From: Albugo candida
Lineage: Eukaryota
DNA length: 64,000 nucleotides
Assembly (NCBI GenBank): GCA_040437565.1
Contig: JBDOQK010000018.1
Location: 1 to 64,000, forward strand
Reading direction: 5' to 3'
Each line of letters starts with the position of its first letter. Positions within the stretch are counted from its first letter, which is position 1. Of this stretch, positions 53,124-61,637 are shown in pieces. The notes beneath the pieces are model-generated. The model worked only from the letters and a program-made list of their open reading frames with translations, did no database searches and was not told where the DNA came from. Made by a program: the position numbers and the translations under genes.

Positions 53124-54667
53124 CTAGCTAACAACACGAAGATAACTCGATTCGACGACTACAGTCTGCCTAGACTTTGACACATGCGATGCAACAGGCA
53201 ATTTTTCAGCTTTCTGATCGCATTTGTTCATTGAGACAGGTTTCCGTACGAGTCTTCCGGTCGGAAATCCATCGATAAGCTCCGGAACATCGATCTCAAA
53301 AGAGAAGTCTTTCAAATAGCAACATACGAGATTGTGCATGTGATTGTACGCTGATGTTCGCTCGACTTGTGACATTGTGTGCAAGCGTTTCGTGCTTCCA
53401 AACAGAATCATACGGACGTTTTTCGGCCTTGTGAGGCATAAATCGCTGGTCGTTAGATTGTGGGAGTGCTGAGGAGGGATGTCGCAGTCGTCGAGAGGTC
53501 GTAATGTTCGGAAAACACGCTCTTTACTCGCTTTCCTGTCGATTACATTTGCGTCAGCCTTTGTGAATCGATCGAGTAATGGGACGATCAGGATGGTAGG
53601 ATCATTGACAGTGTGCATGAACAGTAGAACCGACATAAGAACGCGGATTGTGCTCGAGTTGAGCTCCTGAAAGAGCATTTGTGCGCCGGCAATGAGTCCA
53701 TTTACAACAGCAAAACCTCCAGAAACCATCAAGACGCTATTGGCTGTAAATTGCTCCGGATGGCGCNNNNNNNNNNNNNNNNNNNNNNNNNNNNNNNNNN
53801 NNNNNNNNNNNNNNNNNNNNNNNNNNNNNNNNNNNNNNNNNNNNNNNNNNNNNNNNNNNNNNNNNNACTCGCTTTCCTGTCGATTACATTTGCGTCAGCC
53901 TTTGTGAATCGATCGAGTAATGGGACGATCAGGATGGTAGGATCATTGACAGTGTGCATGAACAGTAGAACCGACATAAGAACGCGGATTGTGCTCGAGT
54001 TGAGCTCCTGAAAGAGCATTTGTGCGCCGGCAATGAGTCCATTTACAACAGCAAAACCTCCAGAAACCATCAAGACGCTATTGGCTGTAAATTGCTCCGG
54101 ATGGCGCACTATATGGAGCAAGAAGCCTCCAGCCAGAGTATCTGTTGTTGCATTGTGGTGCATCGTGTGATATAACGATACGCAGTTATCTCGCAAGTCT
54201 CTGAAAAACACTCTCACATCTGAAATTCCAATGGACGGATGATGAAATGTTAACAAAATCCACTGAAACGCTCTCAGAGCATAACTGATACCATCCATGC
54301 TCGTGGATACGATGCTTTCCAGAGTGTTTGTCACGGTATGCTATTTAATGGCTCAATTAGTACTCTTCAAATTAAACTGTTGCAAATTGCTCACCGATAG
54401 CTTTTTCAATAGCGAGAGGCTTCCATAGTATTCAAAGTTGCGTCGACTTTTCAATTTAAAATAATTCCATAATGTTTCTTTTGGATGCGTGAGTACAAAT
54501 TCCGTCATAAATCGATCTTTTTCCAAAATCTGCTGTTCTTCGGAGGAAATGTTTTGCCTCTCATAAATAAATGCTTGTAATACACGACATGTGGTGGGAG
54601 TCGCGTCGAGGCTGAGCGTGTGAGTCAAAAACGCGTTTAGATACGCAAAACGTAATATACGTCGCAT
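53124..54667 (-). CDS. Orphan secreted or membrane protein, 2 exons (segment duplicated across gap)
   Basis: Signal-like MRRILRFAYLNAFLTHTLS; intron GTGAGC...CTAAT...TAG joins ORF 54353-54691 to 53729-54334 in frame (KKLS|HTVTNTLE); internal hydrophobic segments. Confidence 0.6.
53526..54107. repeat. Gap-flank direct duplication 53526-53766 / 53867-54107
   Basis: 241 nt repeated inside the orphan gene. Confidence 0.9.
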
Positions 54668-54976
54668 CGCGTTTGCAAAAATGACAGTCAAATGCTTAGG
54701 AATCGGATGTTAACATTGATGTTGCTGCATCGTCAGTGGGACGAGCTCTCGTTCTATCCATTAGATCCATCTCAACGCACTGTTCGAAAAAACTGCGTGA
54801 GACTCGGTGTCGTTTGATTGTATCAGCACGGCGACCGATACAACAAGTAAAAGCCCTCGACATCTTTTTGTCCAATTGTAACAGACATAAATTCGGAATG
54901 TTTGTCAAACGTACAGCCAATGAGAAGGCATAAGCAGCAATGCGAGCGCATAAACAACCAATCAGTCGCACGCAAA

Positions 54977-57900
54977 ATGAACGGAAGAATTCTTTGCATT
55001 TACCGCCAAATCGCGTAAGTAGTCCGCATCGAAATGGCATTTTGACTCCCTTGCGCATCACACAGATACCAATTCGATGCTCCTCTAGACGAGGATGTCA
55101 ATGGAAATCACCAAATATCCATCGAACTCGTCCAAAATCTCATTTTCTCGCTGTTTTCTCTCCCGCCAGAAAACCAAATCTTCGTATCTCTCAATGATTT
55201 CTGCGTAATTGGCTCCTTTCACGAAAATATGAAGCTTTTTGCCGCGGAGAATGCCATCAGCATCAACGCTCCTTTACTTTCTTTCGGAAATATTGCTCAA
55301 CCGGAGCTTCGATTACTCCTTCTCGATGAAACCGCATCTTCCAGCGATCCCATTTGCTCGGATTACGCGAATATTTGTACTCGATGCGTCTTTGGTGACG
55401 TGTCGGTGTTCCAGCCGGTATATCGCTCCACGAAGATCACATCGGATTCCCAAAGTATTTGTGTGATGTGTCGTGCTTGTGCACAAAGTTGTACAACGGG
55501 TATGGAGAGACCTTTTGTGGCGATGCTTTAACACCTTTTCTTTGGATAGCTTCCAAGCTTTTGGATCCGTTAGAATGGCATCAAATGATTGCGAAGAATT
55601 CTCATCCTTCGTTCATTTCTTCTGTAATAACTGTCTCTGGCGATTCCGATGTGACCGCCCCCCAGAGCTACATCAAGCTTCCGTGGGATCTCAATATCAT
55701 GGGTTCAGGTCAATCTGTCTTCCTCTGCGTCCAACGCGGTAAGAACGGCTGCTAAGAATCCTTTCCAAAGGCGCTGACTCCCTCGTCACAGATAAACGGC
55801 GGGCGCTGACTTCAATCGATCTCGTTGAGATTTCCAATTGTCAGTTCCAATTGACGTCGGAAGTGGTACCTCTTTGCAGAAACAACGACGCATTCGGGAT
55901 CACAGATGTGCGGGTGCTTTACGGAAAGGATGCCGAGATACCGAAAGGATACATTCGATCATCCACAAGTATGATGTCGGACAACTTTGACGTGTATCTT
56001 TGCTATCAATTGGCTCCACTTTCCGGCTTCGTATGCAACAATGAACACAGCGATATTGGAAAATGTCTTTTTTCAAGTCGCTTTTCCACAACGCGATCTT
56101 TATTGGACTTTGATGTATCTCAATGGCTCATTTTTCTGTCGATACGAGCGGCTCGTTTAAAATCGGATCGAGAAATGATGCAAATACGATACAAAGAGAA
56201 GGAGCCCGAGATGCTGAGTCGTCTACATGCCGGTCTTGGTCGTGTGTTGCAGTATGAAGATCCTTCCATGCAACAAGCAGCAAGGATGCACATTCCGATT
56301 GAAAGACTGAAACGCGATGCAGCTCTTGCCGTTTCAGACTCGAATTCCTCGATGGACGAAGCGCTTGTGCGCCAATTGTTGCATTGGTTCAAAGCTGAAT
56401 TCTTCACTTGGACAAATCAGCCGAAATGCTCTTCTTGCGGAAATGAAAAGACTCGTTATTTACGCACTGAAGGCCCACAAAGCGACGACGAAATCCAAGG
56501 CAATGCGAGTCGAGTCGAGATATACGAATGTGACGTATGCCATGGCCTTACGCGATTTCCTCGGTACAATAATCCAATCAAACTCTTAAGCACGAGGACG
56601 GGAAGATGTGGAGAATGGGCAAATTGCTTTACACTTTGCTGTCGTGCGATGGGCTTTGATGCTCGCTATGTTTTGGATGTGACGGATCATGTATGGACGG
56701 AAGTATATTCCACTGCTCAGAATCGCTGGCTTCATTGTGATTCATGTGAAGATCAATTGGATGCTCCTTTGACGTACGAAGTTGGATGGGGGAAAAATCT
56801 ATCGTACATTTTCGCTTTTTCCAAAGACCAAGTGGTTGATGTTGCTCGACGATACACAAAAGATTGGGAATCTGTGCTTTCACGTCGAGTCGATGTGCCA
56901 GAGGAATGGTTGGAACAAGTGCTCGAGAGGCTAAATGTGGAGAAACAAAGCAGATTAAGCGCTTGTCGAATTGCCACATTGAAAGAACGTCACGTTTCCG
57001 AGCAAAGAGAGCTTCATGAGGAAAGAAAAAAGCCATCGGGTAACGTCCAAGGAAGAGTATCCGGCTCGGCAGAATGGAAGCGTGTGAGAGAAGAAGATGG
57101 GTTGAAGTCGACGTTTGTTGATCATGGATGTGTAAAGCTCATCTCACGCTTGGACTCGATAAAGACAGTTTCTGTTCAGCACGTTGCAAAAGAGCTGTGT
57201 CAAGTGATGACAATCGGATGCAAGAATCCTGATTGTGTGAATCCTTACTGCTTCCACCTAAGGAAACAGAATAGTGACTTTGCGTCATATGATGCAACGG
57301 ATATGCTCGTTCGAAACTTGCAGTCGATTTCTGCCGTCTCTGGTGTCGTAAGTGCTGCTGGGATATCGTCTTTGTTGTGTTCAGAGAAATCGGATATCCG
57401 TAGCGTCATTCTCCGGCATTCACCGTCGTTATATTTGCCCATGCAGGATGAACTGGTCCCACCAAAGTGTATGCTGGTCGATATTTCAGGGAAGGAAAAC
57501 CATGTGGAGAATATCGATCGCTGCCCAATGAGAAAACCTTTTCGATTATACAGTCTTGCTGATTCGGATTCTGACTCGGAGAGAAATTGCAGCCTTGCTA
57601 TGGTTCCCCGAAAAAAGCTCCAAATTGCATTGAGTGGCACTCAAATCGAATCGTCTCAAAGCATTGGCCTCTCCTTCTTGCTTCGTTTCGAGCAACTTCT
57701 GCTGGGCGACACGGAGAATGCATCGGTGTTTACTATCAGCTTTCAACAAGGAGAGAATGTGATTGCTTTGGCGGACTTTGTGATTGTCAAATCTTCAGAA
57801 CGTGCAGTTGCAGTGAATATGAGGATGAAGTCGGAATGGTGTAGCGCCAAACAAGTGCTCCACTTCCATGAGGCGATCGCTGTTGGGCTTTCGTTCTCGA

Positions 57901-59025
57901 AGAATGGGATGATTCTCTGCCAAAATGGAGAGTCGGTGGCAACTATACCCGCATTTCCACAATGCTTCTCAGTACTCTCATTAACATTGTGCGCTACCGG
58001 AAAGCAAACAATTATCTTGTTGACTCATTTGGCTATCTTCACGTCTCCAACATTTGAAGAGAAGCTTCTGTCTTTATCGGCGGAATTGTATCGGCGCTTT
58101 ATCCCATGGAAATCGCTAAAAGCGATATCTGTGAACGGTGCAAGGGCCAAACTTTGCCAGGATCCAATCGCAAGTGTGCAATCAAGCTGCAGAATCGCAC
58201 GTGTTCGATGTAAGAATCCAATTTTTTTCGCTCAATATCCCCTCATTCTCTTGCGTGAAGTATGGGGAGAAACCTTTTTCAATGGCATCGAATTCGTCTA
58301 CGAGCGCGATCAAACTGAGACATCCACAGACCCAGCTCCAATTTATGGCACGTTTTTCGGCAACTCAATTGCTTCCGCCCTCAGAGAAATTCCCACAGTC
58401 GAAGTCACACTAATGCCATTCGAGTTCATCACCGAAATGAGTGGCCATAAAGGCGCTTGGCTTGACTCCATAACTCTCCGTACAAACTTCAAACGGACGT
58501 TCATGTGCGGTGGATCTGGTGGGGATTTTTTCAAGATCTCTAGTCCAAGTTTTATGGAAGAAATCCGCTCTATCGAATTCGCTGTTGGCGACCATTTGAA
58601 TGATCCAATTGCGTTCTTTGGACCGGTCAAAGCACCTGAGCGTACGTGTGCTTTTATCTGTAAGAAATTGAGGCTGAAATTGTGACTTAGATGCAATGGC
58701 AAGGGAATTGGACGATCTTTGTCGTTCTCTGACAGATGCGTCAAAACGCGCATTGACGCTGACAGCGATGCAGCGGTACGTAGAGAACCTTTGTGGGAAC
58801 CCAACAGAGCCGAAATATCAGCGAATTCGCGCTGGAAATCCGTATTTCGTTGAGAGCTTTGGGCATTTGAATTCTTTGCAGTTGAAGTTGAAGTTGAGGT
58901 GGTGCGGATTTTATGAAGAGGAGAGTGATGGTCAGGTGTATTATCATTGGAAAGAAGGCAAAGAGGAAAGATGGATGCTCTATTTTAGAGTGTATCTACT
59001 TGAATTGAGAAATAGATGTGAATAG
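54977..59025 (+). CDS. PNG1: Large multidomain peptide:N-glycanase (PNGase/NGLY1)
   Basis: Transglutaminase-like core LLHWFKAEFFTW, CSSC/CDVC Zn pairs, TRFPRYNNP, GRCGEWANCF, DHVWTEVY, HCDSCE, YEVGWGK, GRVSGSAEW; upstream and downstream exons joined by frame-consistent GT-AG introns from ATG 54977. Confidence 0.9.
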
Positions 59026-59111
59026 TTGTTTATTGGTTTAGAGTCAAGAAGAGTTCTATTGAAGAAATGACGGTAATACATGTTCGTGGCTATTGCTTCA
59101 TCGGTATTTAG

Positions 59112-61637
59112 ATGAAGCGTGCATTTGTATCTGCTGGCTCGAATGCGATATCCAACGCATTTGTTAGCAACGATGCGATACGTTTGAGGTTTGAATGTGA
59201 CGAGAGGAAAGATAGTGTCGCATATTGGGGCGCGTATGGATCCTCCCACTCTATTGCTTTGTTAACAAGAAATGCAATAGTTCCATCGCTTCTTCAGATT
59301 GGACCTATTTTACATCCATCGATAGACGCATCGGCGTCCGAAAATATACGAATCACAAGTATTTATCTATACGATTACGAAGGTGTCGCAATTATATTCG
59401 CTGGTGATAGTAAAGGATCCGTTTATCTCTGGAATCAGTATCATACTCATACCATCAACTCAGAATGGAATCTGATTCAATTACTTAATGGTATCAGTGG
59501 TATTTCTGCAGTTTGTGCTGGAAAAACCGTAAGAAACTGGTTTTTTCTCGCTTCGGTCTCTGATGGAGTCATAATTGCCTGGAAATGGGACATAAACGAT
59601 AGTGCATGCATCAGAGAAGCTCCTGTCGAAATAAAGCTCTCCAATCCTTCAGATCAACGTCGTATCGTCAATGCAATGTCCATATTGCCCGTAAACACCC
59701 AATTAGAGGACCGAGTTTTGGTCGCTTTAGGCGGAGTGGACCACAAGATATTCGTTTACGAGCTGACAAGTGCCAATTCGTGGATGCAAGTGTTGATTCT
59801 TGAAGGTCATTGTGGCTGGATTCGTGATATTCAATTGTTTCCCATTTGCCAAATCGAGAACGCGACTGATACACAAGAGCTTCTCTTGGCATCTGGAGCA
59901 CAAGATCATCGCATTCGAGTATGGAAAATCATGATAGATAAGCGGAATTCGATAGATCGCGTGTATGAAGCGAGTTCAGAGACAATACTGACTGCACATG
60001 AAGACTGGGTCACATCGCTTCAGTGGATGGTACTCCCTTCAAGTGCTTCTCAATACTCACTAATGCTTCTCTCCTCATCGATGGACAATTCACTCATTCT
60101 GTGGGATGCCGGAACCATTGAGAAAGATAGCTGCCAATATGTTTCGAAAAGATCTTGGAAGCCAATCTATCGTCTTGGAGAGCTTGGAGGACATGGCGTA
60201 TTATCCGCATACGCAGTACCAGGGGTGAGCCATTATCACAAGATCCCGCTAGAGCTTACAATATTGACATTTTCTGGTCAATTGGAACGTTGGCATGCGG
60301 ATATTGACACATGTGTAAGCGGAATGCGATTTGCTCCTTCCATAGGGCTCACAGGACACACTGCAGCCGTAACAGATCTATCATGGTCTCCCCAAGGTGA
60401 TTATTTGCTCACAGTATCTTCCGACCAAACGGCTCGTATTTGGGCACCATCGCTACTCACCAAAATGTATCATGAGATATCCCGAGCTCAAGTTCACGGC
60501 TACGACATCAATTGTGCTTGTTTCGTCAAAAAAGCTCCGATACGATATGTTTGTGGTGCTGATGAAAAAGTGCTTCGGATTTTTATAGCGCCTGACGAAA
60601 TTGGGAAAAGAGTCGATCAATTGAGTCAGATAGAGCCGAAAGTTGTTGCAGAGCACGACTTTATACGACACGCATATCTTCCCGAACTCAGCTTGACCAA
60701 TAAAAGATCGGGTACGGAGCACAACGAATGGGTTTCTGAGAGTGACGGATACGTGAATCTGGATCCCAACGATTTGCATGGAGCTGTGCAGCTTCCTGTC
60801 GGTAGTGTGTTGAACAGACAAACTTTGTGGCCTGAGGTCCGGAAGCTGTACGGCCATGCAAATGAGATCCTGTCAGTTGCATCAAGCCACGACGGACGAA
60901 TTTTAGCGTCTTCTTGTAAAAGTCGTGAAGAACGTTTCGCAGGTGTTTGGCTCTGGGATACGGATAGCTGGGAACCTTTACCAGTATCACCTTTGCAAGG
61001 ACATACTTGCTCTGTGGTGCAATTGGCATTCTCTCCAAATGATTTCTACTTGGTTTCTGTGTCTCGAGATCGTCATTTCTGCGTATATGAGCGTGAGCGA
61101 AATTTCACTGAGTCTGCACCTCCATATCAACTTGTGACCAGACAAAAGGCGCATAAACGCATTATTTGGACGTGCTCCTGGTCTCCAGACTCTTTGTACG
61201 TTGTTACTGGCTCTCGAGATCAGACGATTGCATTATGGAAGAGGCAAGAGTCTGCGTTGGATTGGCATTCTCCCTGTAATTCTCTTTGTCTCAATGACTC
61301 AGTTACCGCTGTAGCTTTCGCTCCAATTCTTCTCCATACTCATGGGGAGCCTCAGTATGTATTGGCAGCAGGTCTGGATAATGGCGAAATCGTATTCGTG
61401 CGTATCGTACTCGAGAATGAAAAGATCATAATGACACGCACTGAAGTAACTTTGTTAAGTACGAAGGGCACCGATGTGTCTGCACAAAGTACGAATCACA
61501 TGAGTTCTCCGTCATCGACTATTACGCGTTTGGCTTGGCGACCAGGCTCTGATGCCGAGTTGACCCTTGCAGCGTCGAGTCGAGATGGATCTGTTCATAT
61601 TTACGAGATGCATCGCTCTATTTTCGAGGATATTTGA
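59112..61637 (+). CDS. ELP2: Elongator complex subunit 2 (WD40)
   Basis: LEGHCGWIR, LLASGAQDHRIRVW, HEDWV, SSSMD, EISRAQVHGYDINC, GADEKVLRIF, TLWPEVRKLYGH, AHKRIIW. Confidence 0.93.
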   Translation: MKRAFVSAGSNAISNAFVSNDAIRLRFECDERKDSVAYWGAYGSSHSIALLTRNAIVPSLLQIGPILHPSIDASASENIRITSIYLYDYEGVAIIFAGDSKGSVYLWNQYHTHTINSEWNLIQLLNGISGISAVCAGKTVRNWFFLASVSDGVIIAWKWDINDSACIREAPVEIKLSNPSDQRRIVNAMSILPVNTQLEDRVLVALGGVDHKIFVYELTSANSWMQVLILEGHCGWIRDIQLFPICQIENATDTQELLLASGAQDHRIRVWKIMIDKRNSIDRVYEASSETILTAHEDWVTSLQWMVLPSSASQYSLMLLSSSMDNSLILWDAGTIEKDSCQYVSKRSWKPIYRLGELGGHGVLSAYAVPGVSHYHKIPLELTILTFSGQLERWHADIDTCVSGMRFAPSIGLTGHTAAVTDLSWSPQGDYLLTVSSDQTARIWAPSLLTKMYHEISRAQVHGYDINCACFVKKAPIRYVCGADEKVLRIFIAPDEIGKRVDQLSQIEPKVVAEHDFIRHAYLPELSLTNKRSGTEHNEWVSESDGYVNLDPNDLHGAVQLPVGSVLNRQTLWPEVRKLYGHANEILSVASSHDGRILASSCKSREERFAGVWLWDTDSWEPLPVSPLQGHTCSVVQLAFSPNDFYLVSVSRDRHFCVYERERNFTESAPPYQLVTRQKAHKRIIWTCSWSPDSLYVVTGSRDQTIALWKRQESALDWHSPCNSLCLNDSVTAVAFAPILLHTHGEPQYVLAAGLDNGEIVFVRIVLENEKIIMTRTEVTLLSTKGTDVSAQSTNHMSSPSSTITRLAWRPGSDAELTLAASSRDGSVHIYEMHRSIFEDI

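Follow-up and report, generated by a model that had tools for sequence, protein, structure and literature searches.

The biology of peptide:N-glycanase (PNGase) is understood from work on yeast and animals, where the enzyme relies on separate partners (Rad23 and p97 adaptors) and on the PAW lectin, a mannose-binding module according to its Pfam description; the yeast enzyme binds Rad23 (excerpt of PMC2791212). For stramenopiles, De Souza and Aravind (2010) listed a fusion denoted 'MABP + PNGase-type transglutaminase + PUG', where MABP stands for the MVB12-associated beta-prism, assigned this architecture to Phytophthora infestans PITG_02329, and placed the fusions of MABP with deubiquitinases and with deglycanases in the context of cargo sorting during trafficking (excerpt of PMC2881412). 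Here we analyze a stretch of 64,000 nucleotides (nt) from Albugo candida (contig JBDOQK010000018.1, positions 1 to 64,000; hereafter, the window), in which positions 54977-59025 of the + strand constitute a single expressed gene of six exons that is predicted to encode an oomycete-type cytosolic PNGase of 1,264 amino acids (aa). In this protein, the modules follow each other in the order ubiquitin-like, Cys-rich, MABP, catalytic core, AZUL-like, concanavalin A (ConA)-like, jacalin-like and PUB (also known as PUG), with the individual identifications ranging from strong to borderline.

The assignment to the PNGase family follows, above all, from the core. In Pfam searches, the window open reading frame (ORF) matches Transglut_core (57.3 bits, with a cut-off of 23; E = 2.2e-15) and Rad4 (45.9 bits, with a cut-off of 27; E = 6.1e-12), and the profile of an alignment of 22 full-length orthologues (denoted A1 and described below) retrieves the solved structures of the mouse (2f4m, E = 1.6e-110) and yeast (1x3w, E = 1.6e-72) PNGases. 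Three residues, Cys493 (56607-56609, in the motif GRCGEW), His520 (56688-56690, DHVW) and Asp537 (56739-56741, HCD), occupy columns that are invariant in the 22 orthologues; by comparison with the yeast and mouse structures, these motifs are taken to contain the catalytic triad. The two CxxC pairs of the core Zn site, C433/C436 and C467/C470, are intact and also lie in invariant columns, and the core is the most conserved part of the protein. Judging by the residues present, the core is predicted to be catalytically intact, as had been claimed for its Cys-His-Asp triad in an initial annotation of this locus made from the sequence alone.

The coding region is scattered over stop-to-stop + strand ORFs that lie in different frames between 54.9 and 59.1 kb, among them 55046-55531, 55399-55755, 55743-58685 (the largest, 980 aa) and 58678-59025. 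A tblastn comparison with three full-length orthologues showed that these pieces are collinear with one protein, and frame-restoring GT..AG introns were then set by eye. In the final model, a spliced coding sequence of 3,795 nt is open from the ATG at 54977 to the TAG at 59023-59025, and all five introns are of the GT..AG type and join the pieces in frame. The exons and introns are, from 5' to 3':

54977..55014, + strand: exon 1, aa 1-13, first strand of the ubiquitin-like domain; based on the fit to orthologue N-termini
55015..55065, + strand: intron 1, 51 nt, GTAAGT..ACACAG; predicted only
55066..55499, + strand: exon 2, aa 13-157, remainder of the ubiquitin-like domain and Cys-rich element
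55500..55549, + strand: intron 2, 50 nt, GT..AG; spliced out in the X1 and X3 contigs
55550..55738, + strand: exon 3, aa 158-220, first MABP beta-prism blade
55739..55791, + strand: intron 3, 53 nt, GT..AG; spliced out in the X1 and X3 contigs
55792..58209, + strand: exon 4, aa 221-1026, MABP blades 2-3, PNGase core, AZUL-like motif, ConA-like sandwich and first jacalin strand
58210..58260, + strand: intron 4, 51 nt, GT..AG, in frame and stop-free; spliced out in the X1 and X3 contigs
58261..58641, + strand: exon 5, aa 1027-1153, jacalin-like lectin domain
58642..58690, + strand: intron 5, 49 nt, GTACGT..ACTTAG; 58641 joined to 58691 in the X1 and X3 contigs
58691..59025, + strand: exon 6, aa 1154-1264 and the TAG stop, PUB domain

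Introns 2 to 5, that is, four of the five, are absent from contigs of two public runs, X1 and X3, which we presume to be RNA. The X3 contig (3,805 nt, covering 55066-59071) runs uninterrupted through exons 2-6 and contains each of the four splices that restore the frame, whereas a genomic contig from a third run (X7), near-identical to the window, is continuous and unspliced across the gene. The X1 contig is 9,475 nt long and spans neighbouring genes as well. Over 54900-59100, the X1/X3 strain has 17 substitutions relative to the window as well as an insertion of 2 nt directly after the stop codon (59026); the X7 contig differs at 6 positions.

The initial annotation had recognized ORF pieces that splice in frame into one protein, but counted five pieces and roughly 1,250 aa instead of six exons and 1,264 aa; the intron that it overlooked, 58210-58260, is invisible to ORF reading because it is in frame and stop-free. 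Both peptides quoted in it were recovered: exon 2 contains IELVQNLIFSLFSLPPENQIF, and the long ORF contains HSPSLYLPMQDE...LVDISGKENH. Taking out intron 4 restores the spacing of the orthologues at the first jacalin strand, where the jacalin domain starts. An ORF call of 925 aa from a near-identical assembly (P0001) reads through this intron and includes 17 spurious residues where the jacalin domain begins, which carries a general lesson for annotation: short in-frame introns escape ORF reading, and prodigal-type calls of this kind keep such extra residues. For intron 5, an alternative in-frame donor at 58660, which would yield an intron of 31 nt, was considered and rejected, given that the contigs join 58641 to 58691. 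At the other end of the gene, a second in-frame ATG is located upstream, at 54920, and would add 19 residues; the protein could start there rather than at 54977.

In the search with the long ORF, 8,000 candidates were scored and 192 proteins had E <= 0.001; the relatives described here are from the 120 matches listed. One of these is P0001, and next among the matches listed come proteins of 1,200-1,320 aa, with 33-42% identity, from Phytophthora, Peronospora, Plasmopara, Hyaloperonospora, Bremia, Pythium, Lagenidium, Saprolegnia, Aphanomyces, Achlya and Thraustotheca. In the databases, these long relatives are named 'MABP domain-containing protein', 'PUB domain-containing protein' or 'Peptide:N-glycanase' (for example, P0013, 'PUB domain-containing protein [Phytophthora infestans]', and P0020, 'Peptide:N-glycanase [Plasmopara halstedii]'). 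The 22 sequences of A1 were chosen leaving out P0005 and P0010 (longer, probably fused models), P0007, P0011 and P0021 (unnamed), as well as P0012, P0026 and P0050. The same module order was found in all 22. In an hmmsearch, the A1 hidden Markov model matches the spliced product collinearly over profile positions 6-216 and 263-1277 of 1304 (1178.5 bits); because the match runs nearly from end to end, chance assembly of the pieces is excluded. The window protein retains the residue in 165 of the 176 invariant A1 columns and shows 37-39% identity to the Peronosporales and Pythium rows and about 31% identity to those of Saprolegniales.

In a quick maximum-likelihood tree, a split with full support sets Saprolegniales apart, and the window protein lies with Pythium and Phytophthora on the other side of it. 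The branch of the window protein is very long (2.17, with a median of 0.2), so that its exact place is unsure, and this branch length points to a fast-evolving or deep-branching oomycete host. Collectively, these comparisons indicate that the gene is an orthologue of a PNGase family that is present, among the matches listed, across oomycetes, and the model given above supplies a transcript-supported gene structure for a fast-evolving oomycete lineage.

The modules of the predicted protein map to the window as follows:

54977..55333, + strand: ubiquitin-like (beta-grasp) domain, about aa 1-102, split by intron 1; fold-level evidence via an orthologue model
55355..55499, + strand: Cys-rich element, aa 110-157, with conserved D-[WY] and C117...C148-x2-C151-x3-C155
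55600..56020, + strand: MABP (MVB12-associated beta-prism), about aa 175-296, three blades, split by intron 3
56208..57080, + strand: PNGase transglutaminase-like core, about aa 360-650; Pfam and solved-structure profile matches
57177..57386, + strand: AZUL-like Zn motif, aa 683-752, C697-x4-C702-x4-C707 ... C750
57414..58112, + strand: ConA-like (LamG-type) beta-sandwich, aa 762-994; fold-level evidence
58182..58632, + strand: jacalin-like beta-prism lectin domain, about aa 1018-1150, split by intron 4
58723..59022, + strand: PUB (PUG) domain, about aa 1165-1264

Among the modules upstream of the core, the MABP beta-prism is strongly predicted: the exon 3 peptide aligns to each of the three MABP blades of Mpf2Ba1 (8b6v; whole-sequence E = 6.3e-13), and the A1 profile matches the 8b6v chain in three stretches (E = 5.3e-22). 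The initial annotation had postulated a combined Zn-finger/MABP module, of which the MABP half is thus recovered, and the Cys-rich half is represented by a conserved element that matched no family. In this element, C117, C148, C151 and C155 are kept in 31-32 of the 32-33 aligned rows, and a cysteine at position 120 is found in only 7 of 32. A putative Zn site is likely here. Sub-threshold Fer4-type matches to the element (Pfam E of 0.13-0.95; Fer4 clusters of the ESM Atlas at 0.77, below the meaningful level) were rejected because we take them to be an effect of Cys composition.

Since exon 1 splits the N-terminus of the window protein, the ubiquitin-like (UBL) domain was modelled on an orthologue, P0123 (34-row alignment), to which the N-terminal segment of the window protein aligns. 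In the AlphaFold model, residues 1-80 have a predicted local distance difference test (pLDDT) score of about 85-90, and residues 1-84 match ubiquitin, FAT10 and the UBL domains of Dsk2, Rad23, BAG1 and BAT3 with Z scores of 7.5-9.4 (root mean square deviation 1.6-2.5, 68-81 aligned residues). At the level of the fold, then, the N-terminal domain of the window protein is predicted to be of the beta-grasp/ubiquitin-like type, in line with the UBL-like segment originally proposed; the A1 profile search of solved structures at E <= 1 gave no UBL. A phmmer search of 1.84 billion representatives with the exon 2 peptide yielded 12 matches, 11 of which are N-termini of oomycete orthologues; the twelfth, P0122, is a low-complexity repeat and was judged spurious by eye. 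In P0123 itself, PUB follows directly after the UBL domain, the Cys-rich element and the first blade of MABP; this is probably a mis-modelled gene with an intact N-terminus or else a short isoform without the enzyme.

Downstream of the core, the two terminal modules, the jacalin lectin and the C-terminal PUB of the initial annotation, both score above their Pfam cut-offs and are strongly predicted. Exon 5 (window:58263-58640) matches Jacalin with 29.5 bits (cut-off, 22), this domain is found in 21 of the 22 orthologues, the A1 profile matches griffithsin (9.3e-5), and the Gly-rich loops CGGSGGDF and VGDHLND are conserved. PUB is detected with 48.3 bits (cut-off, 34.3; E = 9.7e-13) and is present in all 22 orthologues. 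By sequence, the solved PUB domain closest to the A1 profile is that of UBXD1 (6sap, 1.8e-9, compared to 0.012 for the NGLY1 PUB), and the orthologue PUB model matches the PUB of mouse PNGase in the complex with p97 (2hpl) with a Z score of 11.7.

Between the core and the jacalin-like domain, the identifications are less firm. For the region 57150-58208 of the window, AlphaFold yields a beta-sandwich (pLDDT 79.7; predicted template modelling score 0.81), residues 89-321 of which match ConA-like lectin modules with VIA-align Z scores of 17.7-12 over 160-230 residues and Foldseek E values of about 1e-10, so that the LamG/ConA-like region originally seen by eye is recovered as a predicted fold. 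The best matches are to the lectin-like subdomain of the binding regions of clostridial toxins, followed, among others, by a pilin lectin module, sialidase lectin domains, ERGIC-53, VIP36, Emp47, calnexin, calreticulin and legume lectins; with identities of 4-14%, they reflect a shared fold and nothing more. Laminin_G_3 is matched at E <= 0.01 in 13 of the 22 orthologues, and, among the seven orthologues with printed scores, only P0050 exceeds the cut-off (28.7, compared to 27.6). The AZUL-like Zn motif is a borderline candidate. AZUL is matched at E <= 0.01 in 18 of the 22 orthologues, and four of the seven scanned are above the Pfam cut-off, namely P0002 (29.4), P0004 (27.2), P0005 (25.9) and P0008 (24.5). 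The E6AP AZUL (2kr1) has a Cys triplet with which C697, C702 and C707 form a gap-free alignment, at a single-sequence E of 0.96, which is not significant, and the A1 profile matches the E6AP AZUL with E of 0.06-0.15. The distal C750 belongs to a nearly invariant column and is presumed to be the equivalent of the fourth Zn ligand of E6AP.

Taken as a whole, the evidence makes it probable that the gene specifies an expressed oomycete-type PNGase involved in cytosolic glycoprotein deglycosylation together with Cdc48 and the proteasome; the likely substrates are misfolded glycoproteins. Under this scenario, the enzyme would remove N-glycans from misfolded glycoproteins dislocated from the endoplasmic reticulum (ER) to the cytosol. 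The C-terminal PUB could anchor it on the C-terminal tail of Cdc48/p97, by analogy with the PUB bound to p97 in the PDB entry 2hpl (by its title), and the two lectin-fold domains, ConA-like and jacalin-like, might take on the glycan-reading role of the animal PAW. The MABP domain can be predicted to retain the enzyme at acidic membranes, given the binding of the MVB12B MABP to acidic lipid and phosphatidic acid (excerpt of bioRxiv 10.1101/2020.11.25.398396). Finally, the UBL domain in cis, and perhaps the AZUL-like motif, considering that the E6AP AZUL binds the RAZUL of Rpn10 (excerpt of PMC7064531), could connect the enzyme to proteasome receptors; a UBL in the same chain would then do for this enzyme what Rad23 does in trans in yeast. 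Proteasome docking through either module is a conjecture and the weakest point of this scheme, and the combination of membrane binding, glycan reading, p97 binding and proteasome docking in a single chain would be a reasonable extrapolation from the respective families.

A number of observations weigh against this reading. Both spliced contigs stem from a single study, and that X1 and X3 are RNA runs is a guess; homology alone places exon 1 and intron 1, because the X1 contig retains 55015-55065 and the X3 contig starts exactly at 55066. In the N-terminal part, the UBL fold was predicted on P0123, an odd gene model of 305 aa, rather than on the sequence of the window; the exon 2 peptide matches no Pfam family at E <= 0.1, and window aa 76-100 lie opposite gaps in about half of 19 aligned orthologues. 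The Cys-rich element has a middling pLDDT of 60-77 in the P0123 model and matches no family by Pfam, by the A1 profile against solved structures, or in the ESM Atlas, and blades 2-3 of MABP, used by themselves as a single-sequence query, matched nothing. The AZUL-like motif, for which the Cys pattern and the orthologue matches speak, stays under the Pfam cut-off in the window itself (23.0 and 20.2 bits, with a cut-off of 23.8), and the ConA-like region of the window has no Pfam match. Three orthologue models, P0012, P0026 and P0050, have precomputed Pfam lists without PUB. To these can be added the length of the branch of the window protein in the tree and the changes in 11 of the 176 invariant A1 columns.

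These points have to be weighed together with several other explanations of the locus. The gap in contig support at intron 1 could suggest that the pieces belong to two or more genes, for instance, a UBL-MABP gene and a PNGase gene, with the long protein being an artefact of ORF joining, and the extension of the X1 contig over neighbouring genes means that contigs alone are no proof of single transcripts. However, the X3 contig with its four frame-restoring splices and the 22 full-length orthologues that share the order of modules and match collinearly make this explanation highly improbable. The long branch and the changed invariant positions would also be compatible with a non-catalytic scaffold, that is, a PNGase-like pseudoenzyme maintained for its binding modules, and some fungal PNGase orthologues reportedly lack catalytic residues. 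The intact triad and four core Zn cysteines, all in invariant columns, and the position of the core as the best-conserved part of the protein argue otherwise, so that we consider a pseudoenzyme quite unlikely.

Two further alternatives concern the role of the accessory modules and are less easily dismissed. The enzyme could work mainly in the sorting of endosomal/multivesicular-body cargo, or in another trafficking step, rather than in ER-associated degradation, with MABP targeting it to endosomes; this would fit the placement of the MABP-deubiquitinase and MABP-deglycanase fusions with cargo sorting (excerpt of PMC2881412) and the targeting of the MVB12B MABP to late endosomes via phosphatidic acid (excerpt of bioRxiv 10.1101/2020.11.25.398396). 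Given that PUB, and PNGase cores generally, are tied to p97 and to cytosolic glycoprotein disposal, we find such a role unlikely. Only slightly less plausible is a UBX-like function of the N-terminal beta-grasp, which would bind the p97 N-domain instead of acting as a proteasome UBL and, jointly with PUB, would make the protein a two-point p97 adaptor similar to UBXD1. The best sequence match of the PUB domain is to this PUB + UBX adaptor, and the beta-grasp fold alone cannot separate UBL from UBX; nevertheless, what residues 1-84 match is for the most part ubiquitin, UBLs and SUMO, and the 50 rows listed include no UBX entry. The loop after the helix of the beta-grasp domain reads P-[DE]-[ED]-Q-x-L, which we take to be a ubiquitin-family-like feature. 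A UBX-like role on p97 is, therefore, rather unlikely but a live alternative.

Returning to the favoured interpretation, a PNGase that deglycosylates misfolded glycoproteins at Cdc48 and the proteasome, a bolder extension can be entertained tentatively. The protein might be a self-contained, Rad23-independent disposal shuttle, with UBL and the AZUL-like motif on the proteasome, PUB on Cdc48, two lectin folds substituting for PAW, and MABP on an acidic membrane, and eukaryotic PNGases in general might consist of a fixed core with repeatedly swapped lectin (PAW/jacalin/L-type) and p97-binding (PUB/PUL) modules. We regard this extension as possible yet doubtful; if true, it would amount to the convergent assembly of one machine. 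In any case, with analogous modules in one chain and with other lectin folds, the oomycete PNGase offers a natural experiment on the contacts that deglycosylation needs. This gene does not open a new class of systems.

The initial annotation presented the architecture as one not known to have been characterized. This assessment agrees with our literature searches insofar as no experimental work was found: in the literature searched, which did not extend to subscription journals, there was, among the papers listed, none on an oomycete's own PNGase gene, PITG_02329 included, and none that joined jacalin or AZUL modules to PNGase, nor did the literature searched yield a paper on 'MABP domain' and PNGase by that term. 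The word 'jacalin' is absent from the main text of PMC2881412, and PMC6222260 mentions neither MABP nor jacalin nor oomycetes. The claim of novelty is weakened, however, because the MABP + PNGase + PUG part was listed in 2010 and the remaining domains are already annotated automatically in databases for oomycete orthologues; the layout is conserved across oomycetes in public databases and has been partly in print since then. The gene is thus a well-supported member of a family that is known but, in the literature found, experimentally untouched.

In the genomic neighbourhood, the intron-free ORF 59112-61637 (+ strand, 841 aa), which starts 86 nt after the PNGase stop, encodes an orthologue of Elongator complex protein 2 (8avg, 2.2e-78; many WD40 repeats). 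Because the 9.5-kb X1 contig crosses both genes, their transcripts appear to overlap or to be very closely packed. The window contains 14 scaffold gaps of 100 N, none of them inside the PNGase gene. On either side of one of them (53767-53866), a stretch of about 210 nt occurs in direct orientation, with 53541-53750 found again at 53882-54091; this duplication is most likely an assembly artefact.

Compared to animal NGLY1 (PUB, core and PAW), the window protein has a homologous core, with 49-51% identity over about 30% of the query in matches that cover the core only, and a homologous PUB, which is N-terminal in NGLY1 but C-terminal, in the last exon, here. In both proteins, a carbohydrate-binding module follows the core: PAW in NGLY1, the ConA-like and jacalin-like domains in the window protein. 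PAW itself had no Pfam match, either in the window ORF pieces (E <= 1) or in the 22 orthologues (E <= 0.01); the chain 2g9g ('peptide N-glycanase'), presumably the PAW domain, is matched only over 27 residues at its start, with an E of 0.47. The UBL, the Cys-rich element, MABP and the AZUL-like motif are additional to the NGLY1 set. Yeast Png1 shares the core fold and triad (1x3w) but is essentially core only, with the UBL on the separate partner Rad23 (excerpt of PMC2791212), in contrast to the UBL in the same chain here. The p97 adaptor UBXD1, which has the closest solved PUB, resembles the window protein in combining a beta-grasp module and PUB in one chain, and differs in having neither the enzyme nor lectin domains. 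The MABP of MVB12 and of the MACPF protein Mpf2Ba1 likewise consists of three repeated blades whose strands carry the signature P-x-x-Y / P-x-G-Y (excerpt of PMC2881412 for the signature), whereas in the window protein it is fused to a deglycosylating enzyme.

Outside animals and yeast, several PNGases carry a lectin-fold module, a p97-binding module or both after the core, as here, whereas the N-terminal block of UBL, finger and MABP was seen in none of them. These include an Arcella protein (P0070) with the core, an L-type lectin and PUL, another p97-binding module, in the place where oomycetes have PUB; a chytrid protein (P0105) with the core and a legume-type lectin; and metagenomic proteins (P0065, P0068) with the core and jacalin. 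In a scan of metagenomes that covered 80 loci of 385 relatives, two loci (L005 and L001) contain ORFs with a long N-terminal part, the core, about 600 aa and a C-terminal PUB. These ORFs, L005:4227-8021 and L001:4242-8123, are intron-free, encode 1,264 and 1,293 aa, and have the PNGase core at about aa 340-530; their N-terminal regions of ~330 aa and middle regions of 600 aa are without a Pfam match at E <= 0.01, except for one sub-threshold match overlapping the end of the core in L005. With P0008 and P0049 as tblastn queries, the 80 loci gave no N-terminal match, only matches to the jacalin/PUB region in L001, L005, L006 and L066, and hhalign of A1 with the L005 ORF matched the core alone. 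L005 and L001 may represent a second lineage of long PNGases outside oomycetes.

The closest counterparts are the oomycete MABP-PNGase-PUB proteins. The window protein differs from them by its low identity (31-39%), very long branch and five short introns, and its AZUL and ConA-like regions score lower than those of most of these orthologues. The order of the modules, however, is identical from end to end, and the length of 1,264 aa falls within the span of 1,197-1,323 aa of the oomycete proteins.

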